Shown here: positions 4,254 to 44,359 of the stretch, piece after piece
How positions within the stretch are numbered: the first letter of the stretch is position 1
Layout of the letters: each line of letters begins with the position of its first letter
Assembly: GCA_963769425.1 (NCBI GenBank)
Contig: CAVYLP010000003.1
Coordinates: 29,852 to 93,851, forward strand
Length of the DNA: 64,000 bases
Direction: 5' to 3'
From: Candidatus Bathyarchaeota archaeon
Lineage (GTDB): Archaea; Thermoproteota; Bathyarchaeia; TCS64
Notes under the pieces: generated by a model
The model's database searches: none
What the model was told of the DNA's origin: nothing
What the model saw: the letters and a program-made list of their open reading frames with translations, nothing else
Position numbers and translations under genes: made by a program

Positions 4254-4299
4254 TACACTCTAATATTATAGAATTGTTTTCTAAATATCAATTGAATGG

Positions 4300-15453: not shown

Positions 15454-15464
15454 CTTTTATCACC

Positions 15465-20169: not shown

Positions 20170-20279
20170 TTGGTGCCGGGAATGGGAATTGAACCCATGG
20201 TCTCTATCCGGCTAAGGCACTGGTGCCTATAACCTCTGGATCATGAGTCCAGCGCATTAGCCAAGCTATGCTACCCCGG
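20170..20279 (-). tRNA. tRNA-Met/Ile2 (anticodon CAT) with an approximately 31-nt intron at a non-canonical position (variable-loop / T-arm junction). CCA is genome-encoded.
   Basis: Minus-strand read GCCGGGG-TA-GCAT-AGCTTGGCTA-ATGC-G-CTGGA-CTCATGA-TCCAG-[AGGTT...GAGACC insert]-ATGGG-TTCAATT-CCCAT-TCCCGGC-A-CCA. The acceptor, D, anticodon and T stems all pair. The extra 31 nt contains a GGCAC-CA-GTGCC hairpin. Confidence 0.6.
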
Positions 20280-20319
20280 CCCTTCTGACCCATACACACT
20301 GCACAAATTTAAATCCTGA

Positions 20320-21516
20320 TCATCGCTCAACGAGCCTAGGTTCACTAAGGGCGATAGGTCTTCCCTTCTCAAAATACACCCTTGGTAACAGTGGATGCAA
20401 CCCAACCATGAGGGAATACGTCATAATTCCGGCTAGTTCAGCCACGTTATGCGCGTTATTCACACCACCACGCCCTATGGCTTCTACTACCCCACCCACG
20501 TCGACGTCTGTCCCATCAAGATCGACTAGGAAGTGATTGACAGATACCGTCCCTAGTACATGTTTGATCCTCCCATCCACCATGACTAGGCCTTTCTTCG
20601 TCAAGCCCCTCGGGTAGCCGTCGGAGTACCCGATATGAACTGTCCCCACCTTCATCCTCTTAGAAGCCGTGAATCTCCTAGAATAGGTGAGGGACTCTCC
20701 AGACTCAACCCACTTGACCTGTTCGACTCGAGCTTTGAGGGAAATTGCCAACTTTAGGTCCAAACCGCTCTCCCGATCCTCAGGGTCGGGATAGAACCCG
20801 TAGAGCATTAAGCCCGGCCGAACAGCGTCCAAAAACGTGAAGGGTCTGTGGAAGACCGCGTTTCCACTTGCCATGCTGCGGACCCCATACCTAATCCCCA
20901 ATCGATCCAACTCTGCGCTGACATCCTTCATTCTATCAACCTGAATCCGATCAAGTTCCGCATCCTCCGACATGGTCGAGAAAATACCGGTTATCTCAAG
21001 GTGCGTAAGAGACGAAATATACTGAACGAGATCAACGGCTTCGCTCCACCTTACACCAACTCTACCGAGTCCTGTGTCGATCTTAACCCGAGTCTCAGCC
21101 TTCTTCCCGACTTTTTGGGCTGCGGATTCTAGTCTCTCCGCCGTTTTCTTCTGGTAAATCGTCTGCGTGATTTCTTTTGTGACAACCAATTCATAATGCT
21201 CATCTGAGAAGAGGGGATCCATGCTGATCACACCACAATCAAGGTGAGAGTCCCTGATCTGCTCGGCCTCCCAAAGCTTTGCTACGAGGTACTGCTTGAT
21301 GCCCATCCTCATCATATGCGCAACTACTGGTACCAACCCATGGCCGTAGGCATTCGTTTTAACACAGGGGATCACTTCGACTTGGACCTTTTTCTTAACT
21401 TCTTCAAGGTTGTATGTGATAGCGTCGAGGTCGATCTCGAGCCAAGAGGGAAAGCCCTGGATACGTTTCTCTATCTCTTCAGAGGAAAGCTGCCTAGCGA
21501 AATAGGCTTCAGCCAA
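20320..21516 (-). CDS. alr: Alanine racemase (PLP-dependent)
   Basis: VKTNAYGHG pyridoxal-phosphate attachment motif near the N-terminus. Length and C-terminal beta-domain are consistent. Confidence 0.8.
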   Translation of the reverse strand: MAEAYFARQLSSEEIEKRIQGFPSWLEIDLDAITYNLEEVKKKVQVEVIPCVKTNAYGHGLVPVVAHMMRMGIKQYLVAKLWEAEQIRDSHLDCGVISMDPLFSDEHYELVVTKEITQTIYQKKTAERLESAAQKVGKKAETRVKIDTGLGRVGVRWSEAVDLVQYISSLTHLEITGIFSTMSEDAELDRIQVDRMKDVSAELDRLGIRYGVRSMASGNAVFHRPFTFLDAVRPGLMLYGFYPDPEDRESGLDLKLAISLKARVEQVKWVESGESLTYSRRFTASKRMKVGTVHIGYSDGYPRGLTKKGLVMVDGRIKHVLGTVSVNHFLVDLDGTDVDVGGVVEAIGRGGVNNAHNVAELAGIMTYSLMVGLHPLLPRVYFEKGRPIALSEPRLVER

Positions 21517-22218: not shown

Positions 22219-23492
22219 GCGCGCTGCCTTGTCCCGAAATTAACGGCCAAACACCAATCCCTCGAGCAAGGAGACATAAAATCAACTCACAAAAACCACT
22301 AAGCCACATCAACCCCTCCGAAGCCCACAAAACACCCACAACAGACTACACCCCCAGAACCCCAAACCCACTACCCACTAGCCACCCCCACCAGAAACCC
22401 CTCAGACGAGACCCTCACACGTTGAAGAACGTAGGCGAAACAGCCTTCTCAGGCCGACCCAGACACTCAGCCGCCTCACGAACCAGCACGACACAGAGCA
22501 GGCTCAGCAACGCATACACCGAAACGCATCCCAGCCTCCTCACATTGTTCACGGTCAAACCGTACTGGGTCTTCAGCCAGCTGAACACCGACTCCACCAG
22601 CGGACGCTTATGGTACTCGGCCACGAGCCCAGGTGGACCGTGAGTCCTGAACCTACGATCAACCCTCAGAATCCCCTCACCTCTCTGGTTAGCAGTATAC
22701 GGAATCACCGAATCAGAGACGAGACCCCTCACCGCCGAGCTACTGTACTGGCTGTCCGCCACCAGGCTCCTCACCAACCCGCCGGCCCTAACCAGCACCG
22801 CCCTGGCCTTCTCAACCAAGCCTGGAGCGTGCTTCTTCTCGTTGTCGTTAGCGGGAGCCAGCAGAGTGGCTAAGGGAAGCATCGTTTTGTGGTCCACCGC
22901 GACGTGGAGTTTGTAGCCGAGGTCGTAGCCCCTGCCGTTCCTGCCCACTAGGGCGTCTGGGTCAGAGTACGCGACCCTGCTGTTATCCGGGTGCCTGATG
23001 CTCCGTGCCTTGATGAAGCTCGCATCCAGGAGCACATCGACCTCAGGGGCTCTGAATCTGAGGAGTTTGACCACCTTCTCCTCGAGGATGAGCTGGAGGA
23101 CGTCGGATCCGACCCGCTTCGTGAATCTGCTGATGACGGATCTGGGGTAGCCTCTCTGTTTCCCGTATATGAGGCAGAGCCGTCTGAGTCGCCGGTCGAC
23201 GTCGAGGATCCGGGTGAGCTCGCGGAGGCTTCGGATGCCTTTCAGCCTCATTATGAGGAGGGCTCTTAGGATTCCGAGTGGGTTTCTGGGTGGTCTGCCG
23301 GCTCCGGTTGTGTGGTAGCAGCCGATGAGTTGTTTTTGGGCAATGCTTAAGTCGACGTTTCTGAAGAGTGTTTCAAGGGTCTCGTGTTCGTCCTGTCCTA
23401 ACGGACTCGACCTCCTCTGGTTCCCGCCATGGGTGACGAGACCCTAACTTTCAAGATAAACTTGTCTCGAATTTAGGGACAAGGCAGCGCGC
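22219..23492 (-). mobile_element. IS4/IS5-family insertion sequence (about 1.27 kb) with 22-bp imperfect terminal inverted repeats
   Basis: Left end gcgcgctgccttgtcccgaaat (22219-22240). The reverse complement of the right end atttagggacaaggcagcgcgc (23471-23492) is gcgcgctgccttgtccctaaat, matching 20 of 22 positions. The DDE transposase ORF lies inside. A CA-rich 3' segment (22300-22400) resembles copy 2 at 46000-46100. Confidence 0.7.
22415..23251 (-). CDS. DDE transposase, IS4/IS5 family (278 aa from ATG; the frame stays open about 190 nt further upstream without a start codon)
   Basis: Segments DASFIKA, HVAVD, VADSQYSS and ESVFSWLK (DDE, with the E in the xxxFxWxK-like region). Confidence 0.7.
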   Translation of the reverse strand: MRLKGIRSLRELTRILDVDRRLRRLCLIYGKQRGYPRSVISRFTKRVGSDVLQLILEEKVVKLLRFRAPEVDVLLDASFIKARSIRHPDNSRVAYSDPDALVGRNGRGYDLGYKLHVAVDHKTMLPLATLLAPANDNEKKHAPGLVEKARAVLVRAGGLVRSLVADSQYSSSAVRGLVSDSVIPYTANQRGEGILRVDRRFRTHGPPGLVAEYHKRPLVESVFSWLKTQYGLTVNNVRRLGCVSVYALLSLLCVVLVREAAECLGRPEKAVSPTFFNV

Positions 23493-29219: not shown

Positions 29220-29529
29220 ATGTGGAGATTCGTAGTCTGCGGATATTTCAGTTGCGCGCGAATGACTCTCTTATTTTTAATAAAAGTGTCAAGTCAGACT
29301 CGCAAGTGAAAACGTTAGTATGGGGCTTCCCCCCGCTACTTTTAATAAATTTATGAATATTATCCAGTTCAACTACACATTCAGAACTCGAATATGCAGA
29401 AGAGGAGAAAAATCTCGCATCCTGTCGCGCACGCGTAAGGATTATGGGGTTGCGTATATTATGTGCTGGTCATCCTCGCACGCTTGCCGTCTCATACACT
29501 TTTTAAAATTCAATTCTCAATACAGAATC

Positions 29530-29844
29530 ATGAATGCCGAAGCATTTGACGATGAGGGATTTCTAATCAACGCCAATCTATGGACCAAAGAACTATCAAA
29601 GAGTATGGCTAAGACCCAATTCGACATAACCCTCACCGACCAACAGACAAAGATCATCCTTTACATCAGAGACTACTACAAAAAATGGGAGACACTACCA
29701 ATGCTTAAAACAATCAGAGACGAATTCGACCTAACCACATCAGAGATAGATGAACAATTCAAGAGAGGCAGCAGCACAGCGAGGGGAGTAATATGCAAAC
29801 TCGCCGGGTTACCAAAGATGCTATGCATAGCCTCAGGATGCTGA
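29530..29844 (+). CDS. TusE/DsrC-family sulfur-relay protein (about 105 aa from the internal Met; annotated ORF 29320..29844)
   Basis: C-terminal ...KLAGLPKMLCIASGC is close to the DsrC/TusE tail (…AGLPKPTGC…) with a penultimate-arm Cys. The internal LTDQQTKIILYIRDYYKKWETLP is DsrC-like. Confidence 0.55.
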   Translation: MNAEAFDDEGFLINANLWTKELSKSMAKTQFDITLTDQQTKIILYIRDYYKKWETLPMLKTIRDEFDLTTSEIDEQFKRGSSTARGVICKLAGLPKMLCIASGC

Positions 29845-29851
29845 GCGAACA

Positions 29852-30205
29852 ATGAGCGAAGAGCTATTGCTGGTATACGGCTGGGGACCGGAGGAGGATG
29901 GAAAACTCTCATCCCTCCTCTACATAGCAGAGACGGGGATATCGATGGGCATGAATACCTCGATCTTTCTCTTCACAGAAGCGGCGATCCTCGCCAAACA
30001 GGGTAACATCCAGAAGGTAAGCGTGGAAATGGACTCCAGGTTCAGACGAATCACAAACGACCCCAGGCTCAGGGTATATGTGTGCGAAGAGGCGGCAAGG
30101 AAGCGTGGGTTAACACGTGATAACATCGAGGAAAAAATCAGCCTTATTGGGTACGCCACCTTCCTTGACATAGCTACAAAAACTAAGACTGTGATAACAA
30201 TTTAG
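29852..30205 (+). CDS. DsrE/DsrF/TusD-like protein (117 aa)
   Basis: Conserved YVCEEAARKRGL Cys motif. Size matches. It starts 8 nt after the TusE-like gene. Confidence 0.55.
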   Translation: MSEELLLVYGWGPEEDGKLSSLLYIAETGISMGMNTSIFLFTEAAILAKQGNIQKVSVEMDSRFRRITNDPRLRVYVCEEAARKRGLTRDNIEEKISLIGYATFLDIATKTKTVITI

Positions 30206-30219
30206 GGGATAGATAAACG

Positions 30220-30612
30220 ATGATTGTGAAAAAGGTGAAGGAAGTCAAGGACTTCGACGTCAAGGAGGCGTATGGGCAGGATGCTGAGGGAGTATCGATC
30301 AGGTGGATCTCTGAGAAACGCACGGGCGGGGATGAGTATCTGCACAACTTCGCACTCAGATACTTCACCTTCAAGCCTAATGCCTACATGAATCCTCATA
30401 AGCATCCGTGGGAGCAGGAGATCGCCGTCACGAAGGGAAGGATTCAGGTTTTAGGAGCTGCCAATGTTCAGATTCTGAATGAGGGAGATGTAGGATATTT
30501 CCCGGCGAATGAGGTGCATGGTTTCAAGAATCTCTCTAATGGAGATAGCGAGTTCTATTGTGTGATTGGGTGTGTTGGGAAGGGTGAAAACTGTCTGGGC
30601 ATACAGGGCTAA
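30220..30612 (+). CDS. Cupin-domain protein (130 aa)
   Basis: PHKHPWEQEIAVTKG and EVHGFKN form the two cupin His/Glu motifs. Confidence 0.6.
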   Translation: MIVKKVKEVKDFDVKEAYGQDAEGVSIRWISEKRTGGDEYLHNFALRYFTFKPNAYMNPHKHPWEQEIAVTKGRIQVLGAANVQILNEGDVGYFPANEVHGFKNLSNGDSEFYCVIGCVGKGENCLGIQG

Positions 30613-30779
30613 AAAACATTATAGTTGGCTAATTAATTGAATCTCTTCATTCATTACCTACTTATTTGACTTGATTATGTTCTTGATGCCGAAGTATTGT
30701 AAATGAAAAAAAGATAGCGATTCTTAACCTAGCATCTTAACTAAAAGGATTTAATAGAGAAGGGTTAAAATCGGGCTCC

Positions 30780-31817
30780 GTGTTGAAGCCGTTGGTATCC
30801 ACCATGAAGGGGAAGGCGCTCGCACTCATCTCCGGGGGGCTCGACAGCACCCTCGCTGTGAAGATGGTGAAGGAGATGGGGCTCGAGGTCGAGGCTGTTC
30901 ACTTCACCACCCCATTCTGCCAGTGCGACAAGTGCAGCGTCGACACCACCGCGGAGCAGCTAGACCTCAAGGTCCACAACGTCTTCCTCGGGGAGGAGTT
31001 CCTCTCGATCGTCGTCGACCCGCCCCACGGCAGGGGCAGCCACATGAATGTCTGCATCGACTGCCGCATACTCATGCTCAGGAAGGCGAAGACCCTCGCC
31101 GAGCAGATAGGCGCGGGCTTCTTCGTCACCGGCGAGGTTCTCGGGCAGCGCCCCATGAGCCAGCATGGGTCGGCCATGCGCCTCATAGAGCGAGAGGCGG
31201 GCGTCGAGGACCTGGTACTCAGGCCACTCTCGGGCAAGCTCATGAAGGAGACGCGCATGGAGGACGAGGGAATCGTCGACCGCGACGACCTACTGGAGAT
31301 CAGTGGCAGGAGGAGGCTTCCGCAGTTCGAGCTCGCGGAGAAGCTGGGCGTCTACGACTACCCGTGCCCATCTGGCGGCTGCCTCCTAACCGACCCCGAG
31401 TTCGCCTCAAGGCTTCGGGACTACATCGACAACGAGGGCACGCCAACGATCGAGTCGATACTGCTCCTCAAGGTCGGCAGACACTTCAGGGCGAGGGAGA
31501 CACGCATCGTCGTCGGCAGGAACGAACTCGAGAACAATATTCTCGAGGGCTTCGCACAGAGAGGCGGAACGCGCCTCGAGGTCGAGGGGATAAACGGCCC
31601 CGTCACCCTTGTCATGGGATACGACGAATCCGCCATCAACGCCGCAGCCAAGCTCACCGCAAGATACTCGGATGCACCCAGAGACACACAAGTATGGGTA
31701 AAGGTCACGTCAAGCGCCTCCAAGAGCAGGCAACAAGTGGAGACCGTGGACGACTATACGCTTGAGTCTCTCAGGATCAAAGGCGCGAAGATCCGGTCCA
31801 AGAATACAGGCGTCTAA
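30780..31817 (+). CDS. PP-loop ATP pyrophosphatase of the ThiI/tRNA-sulfurtransferase type (no THUMP domain). Its likely start is M at 30807.
   Basis: LISGGLDSTLA (SGGxDS PP-loop). VCIDCRILMLRKAKTLAEQIGAGFFVTGEVLGQRPMSQ matches the ThiI catalytic-Cys / GExxGQxxSQ region. Confidence 0.6.
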   Translation: MLKPLVSTMKGKALALISGGLDSTLAVKMVKEMGLEVEAVHFTTPFCQCDKCSVDTTAEQLDLKVHNVFLGEEFLSIVVDPPHGRGSHMNVCIDCRILMLRKAKTLAEQIGAGFFVTGEVLGQRPMSQHGSAMRLIEREAGVEDLVLRPLSGKLMKETRMEDEGIVDRDDLLEISGRRRLPQFELAEKLGVYDYPCPSGGCLLTDPEFASRLRDYIDNEGTPTIESILLLKVGRHFRARETRIVVGRNELENNILEGFAQRGGTRLEVEGINGPVTLVMGYDESAINAAAKLTARYSDAPRDTQVWVKVTSSASKSRQQVETVDDYTLESLRIKGAKIRSKNTGV

Positions 31818-32932: not shown

Positions 32933-33841
32933 ATGATCAAAAGTAATAGAAGTAGATTGATACAAACCCAGGTTATGGCACAAATAGCGCCTCCAATTCT
33001 TGAGTCACAAGCTGGTTTCAATGGGGGCTATCTAACAACGTGGGATGGGAGGGCAAAGCACGGTGCTGGCCCTGGAGGTATCAAATATAACGTAAGATTG
33101 GGATCACCATGTTTGGGTTGGCCAGAGACGGAGTATCTTGAACCTGGGGTATCATTAAAAGAGGTTGAGGCAAAGGCTGCACCATATCAGAATCCCTCCA
33201 GCTTTTCGACTACTATGCATACGGTATGCTGTCTAGGCAATGAAGCTAGACTTGTATCCGGGGACGCAAAGAGTAGAAAAGGTGTAATTATAGGTAAGAG
33301 CGATAGACACGTCCTCGCTGAATTCTCTGATAAGATACTTGAGGACCTCACGATTGGTGACCATGTTCGTATCATAGCTGAAGGTGTGGGACTCGAAGTT
33401 GAGGGCTTTGAAGGCAGCGTCTTTAACATGTCAGGAGAATTTCTCGACTCATTAAATCTAAGTTTGAATGGGGGAAAACTTGTATTCCCTGTCGCCAAAA
33501 TCATTCCGGCTTATGCTATGGGAAGTGGGGTCGGTGGATCAGAGGCCCAGAGGGGTAACTTTAGTATTCAGAGTAATCCGCCGGAGCTTGTTGAGGAACT
33601 AGGAATTGCGGATTTGAAGATGGGTGATTTCGTTGCTCTCAAGGACATTCTGATGCATTATGGGAAGGCTTACCATAGAGGTGCGATTACGGTAGGTGTA
33701 GTGATGACTGGAGCGAGTGATAACGCTGGGCATGGTCCTGGTGTACTGGCGCTTGCTTCATCAAAACCTGGTATGATCCTCCCCGACGTAGATAGATCAG
33801 CAAACCTAAGGCGCTACATCGATGTGACCTACTATGATTGA
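32933..33841 (+). CDS. Uncharacterised protein, paralog A (302 aa)
   Basis: Full-length similarity to 33834..34703. Shared motifs are DGxxxxGxGPGG/NG, GxPCxGW, CxGNEA, SGDAK, GDxVxxK, MGSG and GHGPGV. Confidence 0.6.
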   Translation: MIKSNRSRLIQTQVMAQIAPPILESQAGFNGGYLTTWDGRAKHGAGPGGIKYNVRLGSPCLGWPETEYLEPGVSLKEVEAKAAPYQNPSSFSTTMHTVCCLGNEARLVSGDAKSRKGVIIGKSDRHVLAEFSDKILEDLTIGDHVRIIAEGVGLEVEGFEGSVFNMSGEFLDSLNLSLNGGKLVFPVAKIIPAYAMGSGVGGSEAQRGNFSIQSNPPELVEELGIADLKMGDFVALKDILMHYGKAYHRGAITVGVVMTGASDNAGHGPGVLALASSKPGMILPDVDRSANLRRYIDVTYYD

Positions 33842-34703
33842 GACCAATAAGGATCGACTCGTAAAGGTTGCCGTAATGGGCGAGGTTAATATGCCTTGGG
33901 CTAATGAGACCTACTCCACGGCGTTCGATGGTTCACCAAGAATTGGGAATGGACTTAGGCTTGGTATGAATGGAGTAAAATGTAACATCAAGATAGGTGA
34001 CCCATGCGCTGGCTGGGTTGAGGGTGAGCACGTAGAGCCTGGAGTGAGCGTCGCGAACCCAGATAATTTGCAGAACAACGCTCTCGCAGTACTCGCGTGT
34101 GTTGGCAACGAAGCCACGGTAAAATCCGGGGATGCCAAGGGAGCTAATGGAGTAATAACCGGTAAACACGGTCCATTTCATGTCCACTTCCGCGCAAAAG
34201 ATAAAGCGAACATCTCGATCGGCGATAAGGTCCAGTTCAAGGCTTGGGGGGTTGGATTAAAGATCAAAGGTTATGAAGATGTGAATATACATAAGTGCGG
34301 ACCAGAACTTCTCGAAAAAATGGGGATAGAGATCAAAAATGGTCGACTGCTTGTGCCAGTCGTCGCTGAGTTCCCTGCCGAGATCATGGGATCAGGCTAT
34401 GGTATGTCCCCACACTCAATCGACTACGACATCCAGAGCACGTGCCCAGATGTTGCTGTTGAGCTGGGTGTAGATAGGCTGCGCCTCGGCGACTTCGTTG
34501 TTTTAAGGGACCAGTTAAACGATTATGGTAGGGGATATTACAAGGGTGCAGTTAGTATAGGAGTCGTAATCCACGGCTGGAGTAATCACCCGGGACATGG
34601 ACCAGGCGTAACTACGTTAATCAGCGCGAGACCTGGCAGGGTAATGACCACAATCAATCCTGAAGCCAACATCGTTAATGCCCTAAATCTTAGTTTGGAT
34701 TAA
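33834..34703 (+). CDS. Uncharacterised protein, paralog B (289 aa). Its start overlaps the end of paralog A by 8 nt.
   Basis: See paralog A. Tight overlap indicates co-translation. Confidence 0.6.
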   Translation: MIETNKDRLVKVAVMGEVNMPWANETYSTAFDGSPRIGNGLRLGMNGVKCNIKIGDPCAGWVEGEHVEPGVSVANPDNLQNNALAVLACVGNEATVKSGDAKGANGVITGKHGPFHVHFRAKDKANISIGDKVQFKAWGVGLKIKGYEDVNIHKCGPELLEKMGIEIKNGRLLVPVVAEFPAEIMGSGYGMSPHSIDYDIQSTCPDVAVELGVDRLRLGDFVVLRDQLNDYGRGYYKGAVSIGVVIHGWSNHPGHGPGVTTLISARPGRVMTTINPEANIVNALNLSLD

Positions 34704-35121
34704 TCCCGGAATTCGTCGTCTTTGAATCATTTTTAGGACCAGAATATATGCGGATCCCAATCGCACCGCCAAATATAAATGCGATTAGTATGAGGAAATC
34801 ATTTACATTAATAGAAATACCACTAATGAATAGAAAAAGAGAGTAAAATAAATAGGCAATAAAACCCAATAGAACACCGACAGAGACATTAGTGTCTGGA
34901 TAACGTCTCTTGAATAAATTTGATACTGCAACTCCGCTTAATAATGAAGAGGAAAATATCACACCAAAATAAAGGTAGGGGTCAGCAGTAATGAACGTAA
35001 CTAAAATGAGGGCCATAATATAAGCAGGCGTTGCTTCTAATACTCCCCCTGATACATAAATTTGTAATGGAGTTTTAGTAGTTTTTTCTAAATTTTCCAC
35101 GTTAATACGATGAATCAACAC
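34690..35121 (-). CDS. Small polytopic membrane protein (143 aa)
   Basis: ORF with four hydrophobic segments. AT-rich. Confidence 0.35.
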   Translation of the reverse strand: MLIHRINVENLEKTTKTPLQIYVSGGVLEATPAYIMALILVTFITADPYLYFGVIFSSSLLSGVAVSNLFKRRYPDTNVSVGVLLGFIAYLFYSLFLFISGISINVNDFLILIAFIFGGAIGIRIYSGPKNDSKTTNSGINPN

Positions 35122-35225: not shown

Positions 35226-36119
35226 TCAACTAGTAGAATCCATATGGGTCTTTGATGGGTAAAAGCTCCCTCCAAAAGCCACATGTATGGTACCTATCAC
35301 CTTCTCTGCCTCGAGGAACTCATCGACGAGTCTTGCTTTCGGGTTTATTCCAAAGGAGAATTCTCCCAAGTATCTCGACCCAGGGTCTCTTCGAAGTTCC
35401 TCCTCTATTCGACTCTTGATTTTCTTGTCGCTACATTTGACTAAGCCTGCTTTGCCATTTTTGGAACTGATCTCGACTGGAGTTTCGCGGTAGAGTCTGT
35501 CGAATCCGCCTGATGTGCAGACAAGTTTTCCATCAAATGAGTCACCCACGGGAGGCATGCACATAACTTCACCACATGGTAGGTTGCCACCGTATTCTAC
35601 TATGAATTCATGGTCTATTCTGAATGTGAAGTCGGCGCCTAACTGGCTCTGTACTCTAACCTTCTTTGTATCCTTCAGTTTCTCTCTGAGCTTCTCGCCG
35701 AAGGCAAACATCGACTCGTATTCAGCATCTGTAAGGGAAGCAGCGCCCTCTGTGAACATGTCTATCGTTAGACCTGGGCAGTGACAGATTCTTGCTGATT
35801 TATGCCGTTCGAGTTTGTTGAACTGGATCCTGTAGGCTGTCTCTTCACCAGAGTTTCTGAAGAGGTTAATATACAGGTCTGGTTTATTTGCAGCAATTAG
35901 CTCCTTCGTGTGATCATCAAGTTTGGTTCGTATGTTGCTGCTTGTATCCATCATACATAACTTCGTCCAGAGACCGAGTTCGAGTGTAGCCCTCGAAAAT
36001 AAGTCTCCAAGTGGCTTCAACTCTGAGTCGCAAAATATGAGGGCTGATTCACCCACAGTAGCGTCTCGTGTGTTAAAAAGTGCAGTCTTAACTGCTGAAA
36101 GGGCATCCAATCGAGTCAC
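35226..36119 (-). CDS. M29-like (aminopeptidase T/AmpS-type) metallopeptidase-like protein. It is the last gene of the membrane-module operon.
   Basis: Overall resemblance to thermophilic aminopeptidase family M29 (tentative). The start overlaps the upstream gene by 4 nt. Confidence 0.4.
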   Translation of the reverse strand: MTRLDALSAVKTALFNTRDATVGESALIFCDSELKPLGDLFSRATLELGLWTKLCMMDTSSNIRTKLDDHTKELIAANKPDLYINLFRNSGEETAYRIQFNKLERHKSARICHCPGLTIDMFTEGAASLTDAEYESMFAFGEKLREKLKDTKKVRVQSQLGADFTFRIDHEFIVEYGGNLPCGEVMCMPPVGDSFDGKLVCTSGGFDRLYRETPVEISSKNGKAGLVKCSDKKIKSRIEEELRRDPGSRYLGEFSFGINPKARLVDEFLEAEKVIGTIHVAFGGSFYPSKTHMDSTS

Positions 36120-36817
36120 ATCTCGTATCCCATCGATTTTCTCAACAGATTCCTCGTTTTCAGTACATAGACGGTTGCTACGATGACGACTATCATTCCG
36201 ATTGTGAGGTACATGTTATCGGAATTCAGAAGCATTACCATCCTTCCATTCACTAGAGCAGTTCTGCTCATGAAGGTGTTAGCGAAGTAGGCACCGAAGG
36301 CGATGTATATCAGGTAGTATCCGATGCGGGACGTCGTTCCCAAGGCTCCTGTGTGTGGCCTCGAGAAGTAGAAGTACAGCAGAGAGGTTATCACAGTGAC
36401 AACCACCAGGATGTTCTCAAGAGATTGCGTCAGGTTTCCGGTGATGAATAGAGGCACTATTGTCGCTTGGATCTGGCTTGTGAGACTGACTTCTATCACT
36501 GCCCTCAATGTGATGCCCATACCGACGCCTATGGAGAGCGCGATTGGGTATCTTGCTACCCATCGATATTTCTCTGTGTACCTGAGATACGTTGCTAAGC
36601 CAAGGAGAATGGGGATTATGACTAGATAGTTTCCGCTCTGTAGTGGAGTTATACCGTAGTCCATGATGAAGCCTATCGCAGCCACGAGGGCGAAGGCTTG
36701 GGCTGTAGCAACGAATGTGTGTTCAGCGAAGACTGTGAAGGGATTATCTTTGAACAACATACTGAAAATGCATAGGGTGAAGAAGACTACAAGTAGACTA
36801 TCTAAACCAATGACCAT
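36116..36817 (-). CDS. Polytopic membrane protein (233 aa)
   Basis: About 6 hydrophobic segments. Translationally coupled with its neighbours. Confidence 0.5.
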   Translation of the reverse strand: MVIGLDSLLVVFFTLCIFSMLFKDNPFTVFAEHTFVATAQAFALVAAIGFIMDYGITPLQSGNYLVIIPILLGLATYLRYTEKYRWVARYPIALSIGVGMGITLRAVIEVSLTSQIQATIVPLFITGNLTQSLENILVVVTVITSLLYFYFSRPHTGALGTTSRIGYYLIYIAFGAYFANTFMSRTALVNGRMVMLLNSDNMYLTIGMIVVIVATVYVLKTRNLLRKSMGYEM

Positions 36818-37632
36818 TACTTCTTACCTCCTATCCCCACGAAGTACACTATATTGCCAATAACCACGGCTGCTATCAGCCATAGGTGGGCGATTGAGAG
36901 AACGTCGGTGCTCTCTACTCCTAGACCGGGGGTTTTTGTCAGTATCTCGAATTCGCCTGCTCCTCTGACGCTGGAGAGCAACCCAGAGATCTGGCCTGCT
37001 TGGAAATATGGAAGCATAGTAGGCAGCATAACACCTGTTTCGCCGGCTATGACTTTGTTATTAAATTTCTGTTGGAACTGCATGAGGAAACTAGTGGCGC
37101 TAGCTGAGCCTGAATCGAATGTTATTATCAGTGTTATGTCAGCACCGGTTTTTACGTTATCGAGGAAAGTTCCGGAGATCGAGTTACCGTAGTAATCATT
37201 GTGCACAACACCGTGGAAGTTAGTTGCTAATGCGGCTAACCCAGTGTCCCAACCCGCGACGTACCCTATATTGACATAGTCTTGACCGTATTTTTTCCCT
37301 TCCAAGTTAACGTTTTTCAGAGTATAGTCGATCCACTGAGAACCCATAGTCCATGCGCTAAAGTAGATCACCTTGAGGGGTCTGGTCATTAGAAACTGTG
37401 TGGTGTCGAGGACTTGTGGGCCCAGTTCGCCCCAGGATGCTGCGTCGCCACCGTAGTGGACCAGCACGATGCTGCCTGATGGTAAGTTTACAACGGTGTT
37501 ATAGTAGTCCTGAGTATACTGGCTTACCGTTATCGGTAATCCTAGTGGGTGAAGTATAGGGATAGCTATGGCTATGAACATGATTATGTACACTATTCGC
37601 TTCTGGTTTTGGTAGCCATTTAACCAACTCAT
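36817..37632 (-). CDS. Bitopic membrane protein with a large extracytoplasmic domain (271 aa)
   Basis: N-terminal TM segment, central soluble domain (LVHYGGDAASWGELGPQV...) and a C-terminal TM ending in GIGGKK. Confidence 0.5.
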   Translation of the reverse strand: MSWLNGYQNQKRIVYIIMFIAIAIPILHPLGLPITVSQYTQDYYNTVVNLPSGSIVLVHYGGDAASWGELGPQVLDTTQFLMTRPLKVIYFSAWTMGSQWIDYTLKNVNLEGKKYGQDYVNIGYVAGWDTGLAALATNFHGVVHNDYYGNSISGTFLDNVKTGADITLIITFDSGSASATSFLMQFQQKFNNKVIAGETGVMLPTMLPYFQAGQISGLLSSVRGAGEFEILTKTPGLGVESTDVLSIAHLWLIAAVVIGNIVYFVGIGGKK

Positions 37633-37637
37633 TCAAA

Positions 37638-38276
37638 TCACTTCTCCGAAGTTCCGGCCAGGAAACCATACTCCTTGCCGGTCATGACCCTTAGAGCGAG
37701 GGCAACTGCAGCCAATGTGATACTTATGCCAATGCCTCTGCTCACGCCCATTGTTGGATAATTTAATATGAATGTGCCAATTGGGTCGAATCCTCCCCAT
37801 ATGATTGCACCGATAGGTGCGTTTTTCAAGAGAACTATAAATGCGGATATGAGGAGCAGTGATGACTCGATGCTCTTGAATCTGAATGATTTGTAGGCTG
37901 CGGACGCCATGTAGAAGAGGGCTATTGAGTAGAATGTGGCGCTAAGTGGGGAGTACACGTTATTGTATATGTAGCTTGAGATATCACCCGAGTTCCCCTG
38001 AATTACGCCTATGATCGAAGTTATAGAGGTCAATAGAATAAACCAGGCGGCATAGTACCATCCAGGTCTTCTTTTAGCAATTTTTTTCCCGTAATTCTGA
38101 AACATGTTGATGAAACCGAGTCCGATTGCGAAAGCTGCTATAACTGTTCCCCAGTTGGTTAGTTGATCGGTGGTTGCCCTAAGGATGGGTATATCGAGGT
38201 TCCAATCTAAGAGGAAAACGATGATTGCTATCGCTGTGATTGCTATCGATATCTCCTTACGTTTATACCATGACAT
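37638..38276 (-). CDS. Polytopic membrane protein (212 aa)
   Basis: About 6 hydrophobic segments. Confidence 0.5.
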   Translation of the reverse strand: MSWYKRKEISIAITAIAIIVFLLDWNLDIPILRATTDQLTNWGTVIAAFAIGLGFINMFQNYGKKIAKRRPGWYYAAWFILLTSITSIIGVIQGNSGDISSYIYNNVYSPLSATFYSIALFYMASAAYKSFRFKSIESSLLLISAFIVLLKNAPIGAIIWGGFDPIGTFILNYPTMGVSRGIGISITLAAVALALRVMTGKEYGFLAGTSEK

Positions 38277-38287
38277 TTCAATGCCTC

Positions 38288-39076
38288 CTAAACGCTAAGA
38301 AGTATGGATACGATGTTGTATCCGAATATTGCAACCACAGCACCGACGACGATTAAACCGACAACAAAGATTTTGCCCCAGTCTTGGCCACGAAGGCTTC
38401 CTATCTCCACGGGATCCTTTGAGAGATAAGCTCCAGCTGCATAAAGCTCCTCACCGATAAGTACATAATCAGCTATACAAGCCAGCACTGCCGTCTGCTG
38501 ATAGTTTTGGCCGCTGCCAGCGATGACGATAGCCCCAACCGACTCCGCTTCCTCACTCAAAGCCAGTTGTTCGGGGCCATACAGTCCAGTGAAGGCGGCT
38601 GCGGCAATGTTTTTTTCGTGGATCAGCCCTATTTGGCCGGTAGCCCACGCAAACTGGTCTTCTGAGAGGAATATCACATTCTCTGGTTTAAAGTCCTCAA
38701 TTCTTCCCTCGTCATCGTAGGCGTTCCTAACAGTTTCGACAGCCTGAGGGTAGATGATAGATGTCCCTATGTCTCCACCAGCGGGGACGTATAATGTTGT
38801 ATGTGTGCGCGCTGCAATTTTGGCAATATAACCCGTTATGCTCAAGGCCGCTAGCGTGTTTGGGCCAAAACTATCTAAACCATAGCCACTCATAACAGGG
38901 CGGTTCATCTCCGAAGACCTTTCAACAGCCTCCTCGATAGCATCTAGTGCGGCAACTTTTCTGATATATGGTAACTCCTTGGCTTTTCCAGCCTGCGTCA
39001 TCAGATAATAAATCACTAAAAAAAGTCCGATGAGCACGGCAAATGGAAAAGCCTTGCCAGGGAATAACAGTAACAA
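38288..39076 (-). CDS. Bitopic membrane protein with a soluble central domain (262 aa). It is the first gene of the module.
   Basis: N- and C-terminal TM segments. It is preceded by a 245-bp, roughly 25% GC intergenic region (39077-39320). Confidence 0.5.
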   Translation of the reverse strand: MLLLFPGKAFPFAVLIGLFLVIYYLMTQAGKAKELPYIRKVAALDAIEEAVERSSEMNRPVMSGYGLDSFGPNTLAALSITGYIAKIAARTHTTLYVPAGGDIGTSIIYPQAVETVRNAYDDEGRIEDFKPENVIFLSEDQFAWATGQIGLIHEKNIAAAAFTGLYGPEQLALSEEAESVGAIVIAGSGQNYQQTAVLACIADYVLIGEELYAAGAYLSKDPVEIGSLRGQDWGKIFVVGLIVVGAVVAIFGYNIVSILLSV

Positions 39077-39320: not shown

Positions 39321-40475
39321 TCACTCATCTAGTACCTCAATGTTCGCTCTCGGCAGAGTCACCCGCTTCCCGTTATTTAGTTCAACCTCGACTACCCTCA
39401 CGTCTGCTTCTGTCTCAACCTTGTGAAGATTGATTGGCAGACTAATGACAGTGCCATTCTCCCCGAAATAGGGGGTCTGAATCACTCTTACAGGGGTTCC
39501 AACCCTCATAGTCGATGGAGCTTCTTCTTTCTCGTCTGTGGGGGGTGTTTCCTTGTTCGGAATGATGATCTCTGGACGTTGAACACCGGCCCTGATCTGG
39601 GTGGCGCCATTGATGTGGGCTAGATATCCGTTGAACTCGTTGAAGAGGTCAAAGGTTCTCTTCGACATCGCCATCTTGCCGAAGCCCTCGGTGATGATCA
39701 GGGTTAACCCAATTTCTTCTTCCCCGGTTATCGCCACTCCGATAGCGTGGCCTATAAAGCTCGTCAAATCTTCCTCTTTAATGCCTCCCGAGATTATGCC
39801 TGATACGCCGAGTTCAACAGCTTTTTTTAACGTCTCGAAGGTGACGATTCCCCCCGACACAAGTATGTTACCTTTATGTTCGGACTGAATCGCATCGGCT
39901 GAAAGTTGATCCTCTGGGGAACTTACCATCACAGCAATATTGCCGTGTGCCTCTCCGCCTACACCGAATATTCCCTGGATGAAAGCAGCCTCCGTCTCTA
40001 TTACGGCGCCAACATCTTCGATGATCTCACTGACCCTTCCAGGAACATATGCGTTCACACTGATGGGCTCCGGGTGAGTCCTGACAATGATCCTACCCGT
40101 CAAAGCTGAAACATTATCAACTACGCCATCTATTGGAGACCTAACGAATTTTTTTATGAGTCCAAACATCGTTATGCACTGCGCGATAACCTCGTTCTCT
40201 TTGACAGGGTCACCAACCTTCTTCACTAAGTAACTCTCGAGCTCCTCAGAATCAACGTTCAGAATACCCGCTGCTTTAAGGATGTAGGGTCTTCCCGGCA
40301 TTTTTACCTCGGCCACAACGGTGTCGTAGTCGACGACGTCCCCCAGTTTGACAACGACGTTGCCGTGCATTGGCAACTTCCTGATCTTCTTTACATCCAC
40401 TCTTCTCTTGACTTTCAGGCCGGGTGAGTAAGCTTGTGCCTCGGAGGCAACCGCGTCGGTTTCGATAATTGTCAT
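39321..40475 (-). CDS. Uncharacterised protein (about 384 aa from MTIIETD...) partnered with a MutL-family ATPase
   Basis: Its start lies 4 nt downstream of the upstream stop. N-terminal beta-clip/SAF-like segment (VKLGDVVDYDTVVAEVKMPG), Gly-rich central region (GIVTFETLKKAVELGVSGIISGGIKEE) and a C-terminal KOW-like region (RVGTPVRV). No family was recognised. Confidence 0.45.
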   Translation of the reverse strand: MTIIETDAVASEAQAYSPGLKVKRRVDVKKIRKLPMHGNVVVKLGDVVDYDTVVAEVKMPGRPYILKAAGILNVDSEELESYLVKKVGDPVKENEVIAQCITMFGLIKKFVRSPIDGVVDNVSALTGRIIVRTHPEPISVNAYVPGRVSEIIEDVGAVIETEAAFIQGIFGVGGEAHGNIAVMVSSPEDQLSADAIQSEHKGNILVSGGIVTFETLKKAVELGVSGIISGGIKEEDLTSFIGHAIGVAITGEEEIGLTLIITEGFGKMAMSKRTFDLFNEFNGYLAHINGATQIRAGVQRPEIIIPNKETPPTDEKEEAPSTMRVGTPVRVIQTPYFGENGTVISLPINLHKVETEADVRVVEVELNNGKRVTLPRANIEVLDE

Positions 40476-40479
40476 CAGT

Positions 40480-42291
40480 TTACACCTCCTTGTTCGGGTA
40501 AAGCCCCAGCGATTCATTCCAGGTTTTTATCTTTCGTTTACAGAGCTCTGGGCTTTCTGGGAATCTTATTGGTCTCCCCCTCGCGTCGATGTAGACCCCG
40601 ACGACGCCGCCTTGTATGGTTGTTTTCAGGGTTTTCCCGGGCCCAGCCCCAACATCGAAACCCCGCGAAGGTGTGATCACCGCCTTCGCCTCATGCCCCT
40701 CGGGGAGGGAAACCTTCACTATCTCACCGAACTTTAGCTCTTTATCCACTTTAGAGCCATCGGGTATCTCAAAGTTGACCCTTAGTGCCTCCGCTCCGAA
40801 CTCAGCTGTGCCGACTGGAGCGATGACAGTTCCAACCCTCACAAGGCAATCTTTGTCGAATATCTGCCATGCCGCATCCGGGTGGATTGTAGAGAGAACG
40901 CCGAGGTGAGGCATCATGAAGACGCTGTCTTGGAAGATCCTTGTAACGCCCTCTGGTTGAAACGCGTCGGTCATTATGAGCATCGACTGCTCGCGTCTTG
41001 GGGCATGTGAAAGGAGGCCTCCGGTACCAGCTATAATTCTTATCTTCATCATGTCTATGTATGACTCTGCAAGCTCCTGGTTGAGGATCTGGTCGAGGTC
41101 CCTCTTCTCACCGACGCCCTTGAGGCGTGTTGCTATGCTTTTATGGTGGACTAGTCCTAGCCTAAGGGCCTCCCTAGCGACAGCGTGTTCCAAGATCAAG
41201 TTATCTAGTGTATGAGGTATGATTGTGGGCCGGATCATCTTATTCATGAGCCTGTTCTTAACCTCAGATTCGTCGAGGTCGAATGGGAGCCACCTCACAA
41301 TATTCTCGACACCTGTCTCGAGGAGCACGTTACATATGCTGTAGCTCATCCCGAGGTTGGCGCTGACGCTCCTCACGAACCTCCCATCAAAGATCGAGTA
41401 GATATTTGTGGTGGCTCCACCTAGCCCCACACCTAAAACGTTCTCCTTGAATGTGTTGGCGATGAGCTGCATCGCCATCCCCTCGCCGCCGGGGGTGGGC
41501 ATTATGTCGATGTTTGTCCACTTCATCAGATCGGGATACCCTGGGGCGTGGGACATTACATGCTTCATGAATATCTCGTGTATGGCTCGTCTTGCGGGCT
41601 CTGTGTTCTCCACATCCAGTTTCGGTCGCAAATTCGGGACGCTTGTGAAGTCGAAGTCCTTGCACAAGATCTCCTTAACCTCCTCGGTGGCATCTTTGTT
41701 ACCCGCGTAGAGGAGGGGGAGGCTATAATCTACCCCGAGCCTCGGTTTAGGCTCCGCCGCCTTAATCAGCTCCGCGGTTTCGAGAACGACCTTTATCGCG
41801 CCGCCATCCGTTCCTCCTGCTAATAGGATCATGTCTGGCCTGAGGCTTCGAATCCTCTGTATTTTGACGTAGTCTGGCCGCAGGTCGTTAGTGGCGATCA
41901 CATCCATGACCATCGCTCCGGCGCCGAGTGCAGCCCTGTTCGCGCTCTCAGCGGTGATCCCTTTCATCGCGCCGGCGACCATCATCTGCAATCCACCACC
42001 AGCGCTACTCGTTGTGCAATAGATGTCCACGCCCGAGTCGTTGATGCACGGCATCGAGATCCCGTGTCCATCTGGGGAGAGTATCTTATGGTTGGTCAAT
42101 TCTTCGATCTCCTTGATGGCGTTCTTAACACCCTGGGTTACGTTCTCGAAGGGTGCTTCCACGGTTGTAGGTGCCTCACCGGCTACGACGAATCTCCACC
42201 CGTCCGCCCTGTTGGCAAAGAAGCGGGCCTTAGTGGTTGTGCTACCGACGTCGGTTGCCAGAATGTACCGAGCCTCCTCGAGTGGCTTCAT
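40480..42291 (-). CDS. MutL/GlmL-family ASKHA-fold ATPase (glutamate-mutase accessory protein-like) with an extra C-terminal domain of about 140 aa
   Basis: N-terminal LATDVGSTTTKARFF (phosphate-1), LLAGGTDGG and GVGLGGATTNIYS (phosphate-2/adenosine motifs) as in glutamate mutase component L. 603 aa, against about 460 for GlmL. Confidence 0.6.
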   Translation of the reverse strand: MKPLEEARYILATDVGSTTTKARFFANRADGWRFVVAGEAPTTVEAPFENVTQGVKNAIKEIEELTNHKILSPDGHGISMPCINDSGVDIYCTTSSAGGGLQMMVAGAMKGITAESANRAALGAGAMVMDVIATNDLRPDYVKIQRIRSLRPDMILLAGGTDGGAIKVVLETAELIKAAEPKPRLGVDYSLPLLYAGNKDATEEVKEILCKDFDFTSVPNLRPKLDVENTEPARRAIHEIFMKHVMSHAPGYPDLMKWTNIDIMPTPGGEGMAMQLIANTFKENVLGVGLGGATTNIYSIFDGRFVRSVSANLGMSYSICNVLLETGVENIVRWLPFDLDESEVKNRLMNKMIRPTIIPHTLDNLILEHAVAREALRLGLVHHKSIATRLKGVGEKRDLDQILNQELAESYIDMMKIRIIAGTGGLLSHAPRREQSMLIMTDAFQPEGVTRIFQDSVFMMPHLGVLSTIHPDAAWQIFDKDCLVRVGTVIAPVGTAEFGAEALRVNFEIPDGSKVDKELKFGEIVKVSLPEGHEAKAVITPSRGFDVGAGPGKTLKTTIQGGVVGVYIDARGRPIRFPESPELCKRKIKTWNESLGLYPNKEV

Positions 42292-42550: not shown

Positions 42551-44359
42551 TTGGATGAGTTCTCGATTCTGATAACGGATACCGCCGTTGTCGATGGATC
42601 AGGTAAGCCTCCATACAGGGCTAGCATAGGTATAAGGGGAGACAAGGTCGAGCAGGTCGGTATGGTGAAAGGAGACGCCGTGACCGAGATCGACGGAAAG
42701 AAGCTCACAGCCATTCCGGGTTTTATAGACTCACACAGTCACGGGGATTTCAACATCCTCTTCTTCCCCCGTTGCGAAAGTTATCTCTACCAGGGCGTCA
42801 CCACGATGGTGACTGGACAATGCGGCATGTCCCCCGCCCCGATAGGCGATAAGATCACCCTACCAGGGATCGCAGAGTATTACCAGTTCGAGCTCGAACC
42901 CTACAAGTACGAGCCCACTCACACCGTCTACCCACGTGAGACAGTCAACAGACTAATGAGGGAGAAATTTGGGTGGACGATAGACTGGCACTCAATGGCT
43001 GACTGGTTCAAAGTAGTAGAAGAGAAGAAGACGTCGATCAACCTCGCAACCATGGTCGGTCACGTTACGGTAAGGAGGACCGTGATGGAGGATGATTTTG
43101 AGAGGCCGGCTAAAAAGGAGGAGAGGGATATGATGGCGTCACTGATCCGAAGGTCCCTAGATGAAGGGTGCATCGGTTTATCCATGGGTCTCGACTACGA
43201 CCCGGACACCTTTGCCGACAGGGAAGAGCTTGTTGATGCGTGTAAAGTAGCCGCAGAGTACGGAGCCATCTTCGTCCCCCACTCCCGGAGGACGGGGAGG
43301 CGCAAAGGCGTAACCGCGGGTCAGAGGCCACACGACAAGATCGATGCCATAAACGAGGTCATTGACCTCTGCCGCGCATCCAAGGTGCGCATGAATATCG
43401 CCCACCTCTTCACAGGCTGGTACATTAACCCGGACACCAGTTCGACGCTGGAGGAGGCGAATAGGAGAGCTACCCTCAAGGTCATAGACGACGCGATCAA
43501 GGAGGGACTCGATATCAGCTTCGATGCGCTCCCAAGTTGCATGACCTCAGTCTATGGAGGCGCCGCCTTCCTCTGCGGCAGCTTTGAACCATGGGTCAGG
43601 GAGAAGGGAAGCCGAGCCGAGTTCGCGAAGTGGCTCAATGTAGAAGAGTACAGGCAGGAGATAAAGGACGCCGTAAAGGCGGGTAAGTGGTACACGAGAG
43701 AGGGACCCAATATAAATCCCCACTGGGCTGAAGGCATGACGATACTGAGACATAGGGACCCAAACACAATAAACAAAACGATCGCAAAGATAGCGGAAGA
43801 GAGGAGCAAAGACCCCTACGACGTCTGGTTCGACCTGATAAGGGAGGATCCAGATGCCCTATGTGGACATCCATTCACGTATCCCGGAGGACCGCCAGAC
43901 CTTAACGCCGAATACCATAAAGTATTCTGGCAGCACCCAGCCGTGCCCTAGGGATCGTTCATGCAGACGTATACGATTACCAGTATGAACCCCCGGTCCC
44001 CACCTACATGCTGCCCATGGTCATGTTTTACTCAGCATTCCCCCATCATTCCTAGAGAAATTCGTGATTCGCGAGAAGATACTCACGATAGAACAGGCAG
44101 ATACAAAACCTCGACGCAGCCCGCGAAACGCTACGGTCTAAAGGGAAGAGGCGAGATAAAATCCAGATCCTTCGCCGATGTCGTTCTTCTAGAAATGGAC
44201 AAGCTGAAGGTAAACGGAACACCCTTGGAGCCGAAGAAAAAACCATCAGGCATACCTTATGTCATCGTCAATGGCTCGGTGGTGATTGAAAATGGTGAAC
44301 ACACTGGTGCAAAGCCAGGCCAAGTGATCAGGAAGGCCTATAGCCTCCCATCTTCTTAA
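42551..44359 (+). pseudogene. D-aminoacylase (N-acyl-D-amino-acid deacylase, amidohydrolase superfamily) with an in-frame TAG and a garbled segment before the C-terminal domain
   Basis: N-terminal PGFIDSHSHGDF metal-binding motif. C-terminal ...GLKGRGEIKSRSFADVVLL...GIPYVIVNG lies in the same frame after TAG 43949-43951. The segment 43952-44130 fits the family only if further indels are assumed. Confidence 0.6.

Follow-up and report, generated by a model that had tools for sequence, protein, structure and literature searches.

GlmL and Or-4, the latter belonging to the D-ornithine aminomutase cluster, are regarded as reactivating chaperones (PMC4682846; family names). In Escherichia coli the GlmL gene is found in the order glmS-glmL-glmE. 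The full-text literature yielded nothing on the families DUF6754, DUF4438, PF13941 and TIGR01319 and nothing linking Bathyarchaeia with glutamate mutase, and the GlmL papers found deal with the canonical mutase chaperone. Here we describe an ASKHA (actin-fold) ATPase of the MutL/GlmL superfamily which is encoded by a Candidatus Bathyarchaeota archaeon within a stretch of 64,000 nucleotides of contig CAVYLP010000003.1, henceforth called the window (coordinates refer to the window unless another locus is named). The gene of this 603-amino-acid protein (40480..42291, minus strand) is followed by that of a 384-amino-acid partner without Pfam family (39321..40475, minus strand) and, directly downstream of this pair, by four membrane-protein genes (36116-39076) which we refer to as the cassette. 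The ATPase proves, as far as sequence can tell, not to be a GlmL orthologue and to form one functional unit with its partner. That the two supply, from the cytoplasm, the ATP-driven unit of a membrane system not described so far, with the cassette as its membrane part, is a reading to which we give about an even chance.

The ATPase matches PF13941 (MutL) with E = 3.8e-117 over its residues 10-482, corresponding to profile positions 1-450 of 450 and thus to the family, shared with GlmL, from end to end. Both proteins possess the same ASKHA core with an inserted alpha/beta domain (the core with the family's flavodoxin-like insert, residues 10-482, is encoded by 40846..42264, minus strand) and share the motifs DxGSTxTK, SSAxGGL, GGTDGG, GGATTD and GSGG. 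The assignment to the MutL/GlmL family made in the first-pass annotation holds at the level of the superfamily. Over residues 10-474 the ATPase is 28% identical to E. coli GlmL, and it scores below the cut-offs of all three NCBIfam models concerned, reaching 211.2 bits with NF040745 (GlmL; cut-off 475), 158.8 bits with the subfamily model TIGR01319 (cut-off 204) and 208.6 bits with NF040744 (Or-4; cut-off 600). The positive control, GlmL of E. coli O157:H7 (ECs_0763, 462 amino acids) from an authentic glmS-glmL-glmE cluster, passes with 510.7 bits (NF040745) and 898.5 bits (TIGR01319). A bacterial member of the long clade (locus L017) fails as well, with 233 and 174 bits, respectively. Because of the low identity and the scores below every curated cut-off, the ATPase is, judged by these comparisons, not an orthologue of GlmL. 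To Or-4 it bears distant similarity across the whole ASKHA core, yet it stays far under the 600-bit cut-off and has no aminomutase genes (oraS/oraE) nearby in the window.

Unlike GlmL in its E. coli order, the ATPase is not flanked by glmS or glmE; it is instead coupled to a partner which GlmL lacks and linked to membrane genes. The claim of the first-pass annotation that no GlmS/GlmE or other B12 enzyme is encoded in the 64 kb is borne out by a Pfam scan of about 50 open reading frames of the window (roughly at least 117 amino acids each), among which no B12-binding, mutase, aminomutase or radical-SAM domain was detected. A B12 mutase is equally absent from about 35 related loci. No B12-binding, mutase or aminomutase domain is among the families which recur in the 147 neighbour proteins of 19 loci, and the per-gene tables of L023, L025, L108, L111 and L112 contain no such domain either. 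The search of 30 loci for riboswitches revealed no cobalamin riboswitch and, beside the system, no riboswitch of any kind which might give a clue to a ligand; the single find, an FMN riboswitch in L047, is 6.5 kb distant.

More than 7,900 database relatives exist for the ATPase and for the partner each. Aligned close relatives of the ATPase, chiefly from Bathyarchaeia, are 66-82% identical to it, and those from Krumholzibacteria, Chloroflexota, Latescibacterota, Sumerlaeota and Fermentibacteria share 50-66% of residues with it along the entire chain, the C-terminal extension described below included. From Bathyarchaeia to at least six bacterial phyla, the identity within this clade amounts to 50-68%. 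By its sequence the ATPase is a member of a distinct "long-form" subfamily within the PF13941 superfamily. Three stretches are invariant in 33 relatives, namely D14-V-G-S-T-T-T-K21, G289-L-G-G-A-T-T-N296 and T423-G-G-L-L-S-H-A-P431, the last being preceded by G422 which is conserved to at least 90%; we infer that they represent the phosphate-1, phosphate-2 and adenosine motifs of the ASKHA fold. The fold itself, with its two RNase-H-like lobes, is confirmed. No solved structure related by sequence is detectable. The top ranks of a Foldseek search are taken by hydantoinase-type ATP-binding subunits and full-length Hsp70s, with low TM-scores of 0.16-0.34.

Since the family models stop at about residue 480-482, residues 483-603 (40483..40845, minus strand) constitute an extension made up of a beta domain and a terminal helix, neither of which is found in canonical GlmL (about 460 amino acids, no further domain). 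The ATPase exceeds GlmL of E. coli O157 by 141 amino acids, which agrees with the surplus of about 140 noted in the first-pass annotation, and about 120 of these form a discrete C-terminal domain. In the AlphaFold2 model most of the extension has predicted local distance difference test (pLDDT) values of about 85-96, the strands lying between residues 483 and 570 and the helix comprising residues 581-595. The extension is kept in bacterial and archaeal relatives with D569, R571, G572, R573, P574, W591 and Y598 being invariant.

At the junction of the two genes (40473..40491, minus strand) the TAA stop codon of the ATPase (40482-40480) is separated from the ATG of the partner, which starts at 40475, by the 4-nucleotide spacer "actg" (40479-40476), so that the sequence reads ...AAGGAGGTG TAA ACTG ATG... 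The end of the ATPase gene harbours a GGAGG Shine-Dalgarno sequence 9 nucleotides upstream of this ATG, and the 4-nucleotide coupling to a 384-amino-acid protein was thus correctly recognised at the outset. The description of the partner as uncharacterised is equally apt, as neither Pfam nor NCBIfam contains a family which it matches and its 7,974 relatives, mostly 52-60% identical among the best matches listed, are all annotated as hypothetical. A profile search of 1.84 billion representative proteins sorted the partner family into 3,477 clusters at 50% identity. With this many clusters and more than 7,900 relatives for each protein, the pair, as a pair of sequences, is far beyond chance.

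The gene neighbourhood of the pair was examined with one genome per species, which gave 22 loci with the partner, 20 of them on a contig permitting an adjacency test. In 18 of these 20 informative loci, a long-form ATPase gene lies immediately upstream of the partner gene in the same orientation, the paired loci coming from Bathyarchaeia/Thermoproteota, Krumholzibacteria, Chloroflexota, Latescibacterota, Sumerlaeota and Fermentibacteria. The gap between both genes ranges from -38 to +31 nucleotides in 25 of 31 unfused loci which contain the two of them, +1 nucleotide being the commonest value. Moreover, in-frame fusions with the partner at the C-terminus occur in two unrelated clusters, P0256 (995 amino acids), of which eight full-length copies from independent assemblies were found, and P0353 (1003 amino acids) from Ca. 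Ozemobacteraceae. A fusion of the P0256 type is present at 10001-12988 of L108, located between the gene of a small accessory protein and a cassette. Because of the adjacency, the tight junctions and the in-frame fusions, the ATPase and the partner are, on this genomic evidence, one functional unit. In L022, a metagenome-assembled genome of a groundwater Chloroflexi member, divergent versions of ATPase and partner, 28% and 31% identical to those of the window, are still adjacent with a gap of 4 nucleotides, for which reason the pairing appears to be older than the well-conserved clade. The fusion gene of L108 is situated downstream of YegS-like lipid-kinase and CTP_transf_1 (CdsA-type) genes.

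The AlphaFold2 model of the partner (mean pLDDT 83.6) displays three domains. Residues ~20-182 (39930..40418, minus strand) adopt a barrel-sandwich hybrid, or "hybrid motif", whose structural matches are NqrA (7.8), RnfC (7.5) and biotinyl domains (7.6). The subsequent residues ~183-306 (39558..39929, minus strand) form a swivelling beta/beta/alpha domain which holds most of the invariant residues and matches RraA (8.5) as well as the mobile domains of phosphoenolpyruvate utilisers, Enzyme I and the pyruvate-kinase C-domain (7.0-7.6). Finally, residues ~321-384 (39324..39515, minus strand) fold into a KOW/SH3-like beta barrel similar to those of Spt5, NusG and eL27 (7.2-7.7). The sequences of relatives support both end domains, with RnfC_N and Biotin_lipoyl above their cut-offs and KOW weakly. 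The first-pass annotation had read SAF/beta-clip-like and KOW-like segments into this protein; the latter are supported, whereas the SAF/beta-clip label is not, the N-terminal part being a barrel-sandwich hybrid of the RnfC_N / NqrA_N / biotinyl type and the middle a swivelling domain. About ten further variants of some 435-475 amino acids and P0278 match the partner profile in two stretches and carry extra N-terminal sequence, in P0278 with a third repeat of the hybrid motif. The plasmid collection contained no relative of the partner.

The partner contains neither an invariant histidine nor an invariant cysteine. In a manual alignment to E. coli BCCP, the tip of the hairpin is presumably formed by M103-F104-G105-L106, with G105 being invariant, and the conserved K108 presumably falls off this tip. 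From a comparison of motifs by eye, we take G290-A-T-Q-I-R-A-G297 as possibly occupying the place of the GGxTSH motif. Due to the lack of an invariant histidine or cysteine and of a tip lysine, neither a phosphohistidine relay nor an arm carrying biotin or lipoyl is likely. Accordingly, we rejected the partner as a biotin/lipoyl swinging arm, which would require the lysine of an MKM or DKA motif at the hairpin tip, and as a phosphohistidine relay, for which the invariant histidine of GGxTSH is absent; it differs in the same respect from the swivelling domains of RraA and Enzyme I. A role as mutase subunit was discarded as well, the partner showing no similarity to B12-binding or mutase proteins. 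With NqrA and RnfC, which belong to the membrane complexes Na+-NQR and Rnf as peripheral subunits, it has one domain in common, the N-terminal barrel-sandwich hybrid. In contrast to these complexes, however, partner and cassette are devoid of SLBB, Complex1_51K, flavin, Fe-S and Rnf-Nqr matches, and the membrane proteins of the cassette bear no similarity to Rnf or Nqr subunits.

The cassette is separated from the partner gene by an AT-rich spacer of 244 bp and comprises, all on the minus strand, a DUF6754 gene (38288..39076; PF20539, E = 9.7e-59), mem212 (37638..38276; 212 amino acids), mem271 (36817..37632; 271 amino acids) and mem233 (36116..36817; 233 amino acids). In all 80 metagenome loci retrieved with a DUF6754 profile this order is fixed as far as the contigs include the genes, DUF6754 always being the first. 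For mem212, mem271 and mem233 no Pfam family was found at E values up to 10, and profile comparison of all four proteins to solved structures gave nothing below E = 0.1. Hydropathy analysis assigns to the DUF6754 protein an N-terminal transmembrane helix, a domain of about 200 amino acids and a C-terminal transmembrane helix. Since several bacterial homologues carry an N-terminal extension which, as read from their sequences, resembles a signal peptide followed by an FN3-like domain, the N-terminus is probably outside and the core domain of about 200 amino acids cytoplasmic. The polytopic proteins mem212 and mem233 contain at least four and at least five hydrophobic segments, respectively, and mem271 has a transmembrane helix at each end. 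As positive charges flank both helices of mem271, its domain of about 200 amino acids probably faces outside according to the positive-inside rule. Unlike NqrD and NqrE, mem212 and mem233 are not paralogues (hhalign probability 0.2%). For the bitopic proteins DUF6754 and mem271 there is a weak hint of relatedness (E = 0.009, probability 4%) from which we make no claim.

Counted at the level of gene neighbourhoods, 15 of 26 pair-seeded loci from bacteria and archaea (the window, L004-6, L009, L011, L014-19, L021, L025 and L108) have a cassette at a distance of no more than 10 kb, an adjacency for which we estimate a chance of about 1%. Co-directional as well as convergent arrangements of the two modules occur. 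In several bacteria and in the lineage with the fusion (L017, L019, L027, L065, L076, L093, L097 and L108) a single co-directional array comprises the small accessory protein, the ATPase, the partner (or the fusion of both), DUF6754, mem212, mem271 and mem233. The first-pass annotation placed the pair directly upstream of the membrane module and treated these genes as mere neighbours; across bacteria and archaea they are its only genomic associates which recur. Tandem cassette triplets are present in L083, L090 and L105, and in L082 a partner gene at the contig edge is directly followed by three cassettes, the pattern expected of specificity modules with one common energiser.

A further component is the small accessory protein, which is present in most other genomes, has about 100-150 amino acids and shows a conserved "LESxKPLSFxGxQ" core. 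In more than 12 loci its gene immediately precedes that of the ATPase, and in more than 19 it adjoins the cassette without intervening genes; being found beside either module, it ties pair and cassette together. In the window it was detected neither by tblastn nor by a profile hidden Markov model. Apart from these genes, neither module has a gene family which accompanies it repeatedly across phyla. The Amidohydro_3 gene next to the pair adjoins the system only in Bathyarchaeia-type loci (L005, L009, L016, L023 and L025), and the recurrence of ADH, of GcvP, of a Wza-like exporter, of MetH and of an ABC ATPase is confined to apparently lineage-specific syntenic blocks. The Wza-like polysaccharide-export protein (Poly_export and SLBB) clusters across the cassette-only loci L036, L041, L048 and L055, its gene lying directly upstream of the cassette in L048, where alone its position was checked, while MetH and MTHFR recur in L035, L036 and L055; both recurrences probably reflect lineage-specific synteny.

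On these grounds, an ATP-driven unit working on the cassette is the reading we favour, the membrane genes being the most likely "client" of the pair because of their recurrent association. The first-pass annotation had suggested a new actin-fold system with an unknown client, which is the right level of claim; for the reactivase which it also proposed, positive evidence was not found. The predicted topology of the cassette offers one large cytoplasmic and one large external domain. In the envisaged mechanism the ASKHA domain would bind and hydrolyse ATP. Its nucleotide-dependent closure, a typical property of the fold, would reach DUF6754, whose cytoplasmic domain is the likely docking site as judged from predicted topology, by way of the C-terminal beta domain and then of the partner. 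Closure would thereby drive work of the membrane complex, most likely the translocation of a substrate with the outward domain of mem271 constituting the external face. A single ATPase pair may serve several paralogous cassettes, and in most other genomes the small accessory protein would also be part of the system. Whereas the family assignments, the folds, the gene linkage and the pairing and fusion of ATPase and partner are demonstrated, we infer that the pair touches the cassette, which way and what kind of work is done and on what substrate. Transport would be the most plausible kind of work in view of the external domain, the two polytopic subunits and the tandem cassettes behind a single ATPase unit. 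The arrangement recalls, by analogy only, ABC and ECF importers, in that a cytoplasmic ATPase module is combined with two polytopic proteins and an outward-facing domain and that tandem copies of the membrane module go with a single ATPase unit. In contrast to these importers, none of the seven system proteins contains a P-loop (ABC_tran) ATPase, belongs to a known permease family or is homologous to their components.

Several observations weigh against the pair energising the cassette. Eleven pair-seeded loci (L007, L008, L010, L012, L013, L020, L022, L023 and L111-113) have no cassette in the DNA available, and among cassette-seeded loci with at least 5 kb on each side only four of 16 carry the pair. 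Such an asymmetry would arise if several cassettes were served by one ATPase unit; equally, it means that the linkage of neighbouring genes is not obligatory. In L014 and L020 the partner gene lacks an adjacent ATPase gene. Neither ATPase nor partner has a transmembrane segment, and the terminal helix of the ATPase, with an FtsA-helix-like hydrophobic moment of 0.4-0.6, is only moderately amphipathic and probably packed on the beta domain, a placement which the AlphaFold2 model predicts with confidence. As no protein of the cassette resembles a known transporter, channel or enzyme, the notion of transport derives from architecture and gene multiplication only. Finally, the ASKHA proteins closest in the Foldseek search include soluble ATP-dependent enzymes of the hydantoinase-A type.

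According to the foremost alternative, the pair is a soluble ATP-dependent enzyme, consisting of an ASKHA kinase or hydantoinase-A-like subunit and of the partner as catalytic or substrate-binding subunit, while the cassette merely imports the substrate, a small molecule, and the link between both is metabolic instead of physical. Hydantoinase-A-type subunits, known from acetone and acetophenone carboxylase, N-methylhydantoinase and caprolactamase, are the best Foldseek matches of the ATPase (E = 6e-8 to 2e-5), and they too are multidomain ASKHA proteins of similar length which work with a second subunit. Yet, the TM-scores reach just 0.23-0.34, the window encodes no Hydantoinase_B domain or other recognisable catalytic partner, and the architecture of the partner is completely unlike that of a Hydantoinase_B-type subunit. 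The partner furthermore lacks an invariant histidine or cysteine for phosphotransfer, and no metabolic enzyme recurs beside the pair across phyla. The small accessory protein common to pair and cassette likewise speaks against this reading, and the cassette triplets behind one partner gene are more in keeping with a common energiser than with one pathway. We consider a soluble enzyme rather unlikely.

Less likely still, and in our view a poor prospect, is a chaperone resembling Hsp70 or a reactivase, which would assemble, repair, regulate or load with cofactor the proteins of the cassette instead of acting as a motor. Foldseek aligns the ATPase over its whole chain to full-length Hsp70, DnaK and BiP (630-720 columns, E about 2e-7 to 1e-5), and the order of its ASKHA domain, beta domain and helix mimics that of the nucleotide-binding domain, beta subdomain and lid of Hsp70. 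In addition, the described reactivating chaperones GlmL and Or-4 are its nearest relatives by sequence, and a single pair serving many cassettes would also fit a chaperone. In contrast, the TM-scores to Hsp70 are only 0.16-0.26, sequence similarity to Hsp70 is missing, and no J-domain protein or nucleotide-exchange-factor analogue is present. Strict operon coupling to, and fusion with, a dedicated partner would moreover be unusual for an assembly factor. Hsp70, DnaK and BiP also act as translocation motors at membranes.

We hold it to be very improbable that the ATPase is an orphan GlmL-like reactivase of a B12 enzyme, its mutase or corrinoid client having its gene in another part of the genome and the membrane genes adjoining by coincidence. 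Membership in the PF13941 superfamily and the motifs SSAxGGL, GGTDGG and GGATTD, which are common to authentic E. coli GlmL, can be adduced in its favour. L113, a Bathyarchaeia-type contig, encodes at 13954-15764, 2 kb from the pair, a corrinoid protein (B12-binding_2 and B12-binding) and a URO-D methyltransferase. This methyltransferase system is the only B12-related neighbour of the pair which we saw and it is not a mutase; nor is MetH, which occurs near the cassette in three cassette-seeded, syntenic-looking loci. The low identity to GlmL, the failure at three curated cut-offs which authentic GlmL passes, the lack of B12-binding, mutase or aminomutase domains in the window or recurring in related loci, the lack of cobalamin riboswitches and the recurrence of membrane proteins as neighbours all argue against this explanation, which beyond family ancestry has no positive support. 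We conclude that the pair is most probably not a glutamate-mutase (B12) reactivase. Equally improbable is an actin-like filament former of the FtsA, PilM or MreB type which would organise the cassette proteins as a membrane-tethered scaffold rather than power them. The actin-fold proteins FtsA and PilM dock on the bitopic membrane proteins FtsN and PilN; the ATPase shares with these and with MreB and ParM the fold only, having no sequence similarity to FtsA and PilM, other inserted domains and no PilN/O or Fts genes in its company.

Upstream of the ATPase gene, a divergent Amidohydro_3 (D-aminoacylase-like) gene, identified by Pfam and NCBIfam, extends over 42551..44359 (plus strand), and the first-pass annotation was right to place the pair next to a D-aminoacylase. 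The gene is disrupted: between an in-frame TAG at 43949-43951 and the return of the conserved C-terminus lie about 50 codons of odd composition, which suggests a frameshift and hence either a pseudogene or an assembly error; intact genes of relatives encode 532-590 amino acids. At the other end, a weakly matched Peptidase_M29-like gene (29.5 bits; 35226-36119, minus strand) overlaps the last cassette gene by 4 nucleotides and is followed by the gene of a 143-amino-acid membrane protein (34690-35121, minus strand). As neither was seen beside the cassette in any other locus, both look like a window-specific addition to the operon. Beyond them, about 1.4 kb past the cassette, reside two tandem DUF4438 paralogues (32933-33841 and 33834-34703, plus strand). 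In L013 from Chloroflexota, too, the family is represented, by a gene (3649-4530) immediately adjoining that of the partner.

Farther away, DsrC-like, DsrE-like, cupin and ThiI/NFACT-R genes at 29320-31817 (plus strand) constitute a set of the sulfur-relay type without evident link to the ATPase-partner system. A tRNA gene of 107 nucleotides (20174-20280, minus strand), presumed to contain an intron, was detected by Rfam with 55.5 bits and missed by ARAGORN; it is adjoined by an alanine racemase gene (20320-21516). Together with the nearest relatives of the ATPase and the partner, this tRNA gene indicates a Bathyarchaeia-type archaeal host. The G+C content of the window is 0.245 on the far left and climbs to about 0.6 on the far right, the left 13 kb being a low-GC island with glycosyltransferase, FemAB-like and GNAT genes, and a DDE transposase is encoded at 22415-23251. 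These features may indicate horizontally acquired segments or a chimeric assembly.

The ATPase domain is part of a known superfamily, and the system as a whole, with the function presumed for it, matches no described kind of machine. Seven components are conserved at 50-68% identity across two prokaryotic domains; five lack a Pfam family, and for all seven, sequence searches detect no relative of known structure. Through this ATPase, thousands of database genes bear the label "glutamate mutase L" or "methylaspartate mutase", which feeds wrong predictions of glutamate fermentation and B12 metabolism for Bathyarchaeia and many uncultured bacterial phyla. Natural fusions, compact one-operon bacterial versions and tandem cassette paralogues provide handles for experiments. 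If the pair does power the cassette, no membrane machine of this kind energised by an actin fold would have been known before. More tentatively, as a conceivable extension to which we attach no great likelihood, it might represent a new class of primary active transporters or translocases in which an actin-fold (ASKHA, Hsp70-like) energiser, in place of a P-loop, P-type or rotary ATPase, and a dedicated transducer operate interchangeable, substrate-setting cassettes and which horizontal transfer has carried between Bathyarchaeia and numerous phyla of anaerobic bacteria. Given the peptidase, D-aminoacylase-like and alanine racemase genes in the neighbourhood of the system, its role in sediment archaea might be the uptake of detrital peptides or D-amino-acid compounds.

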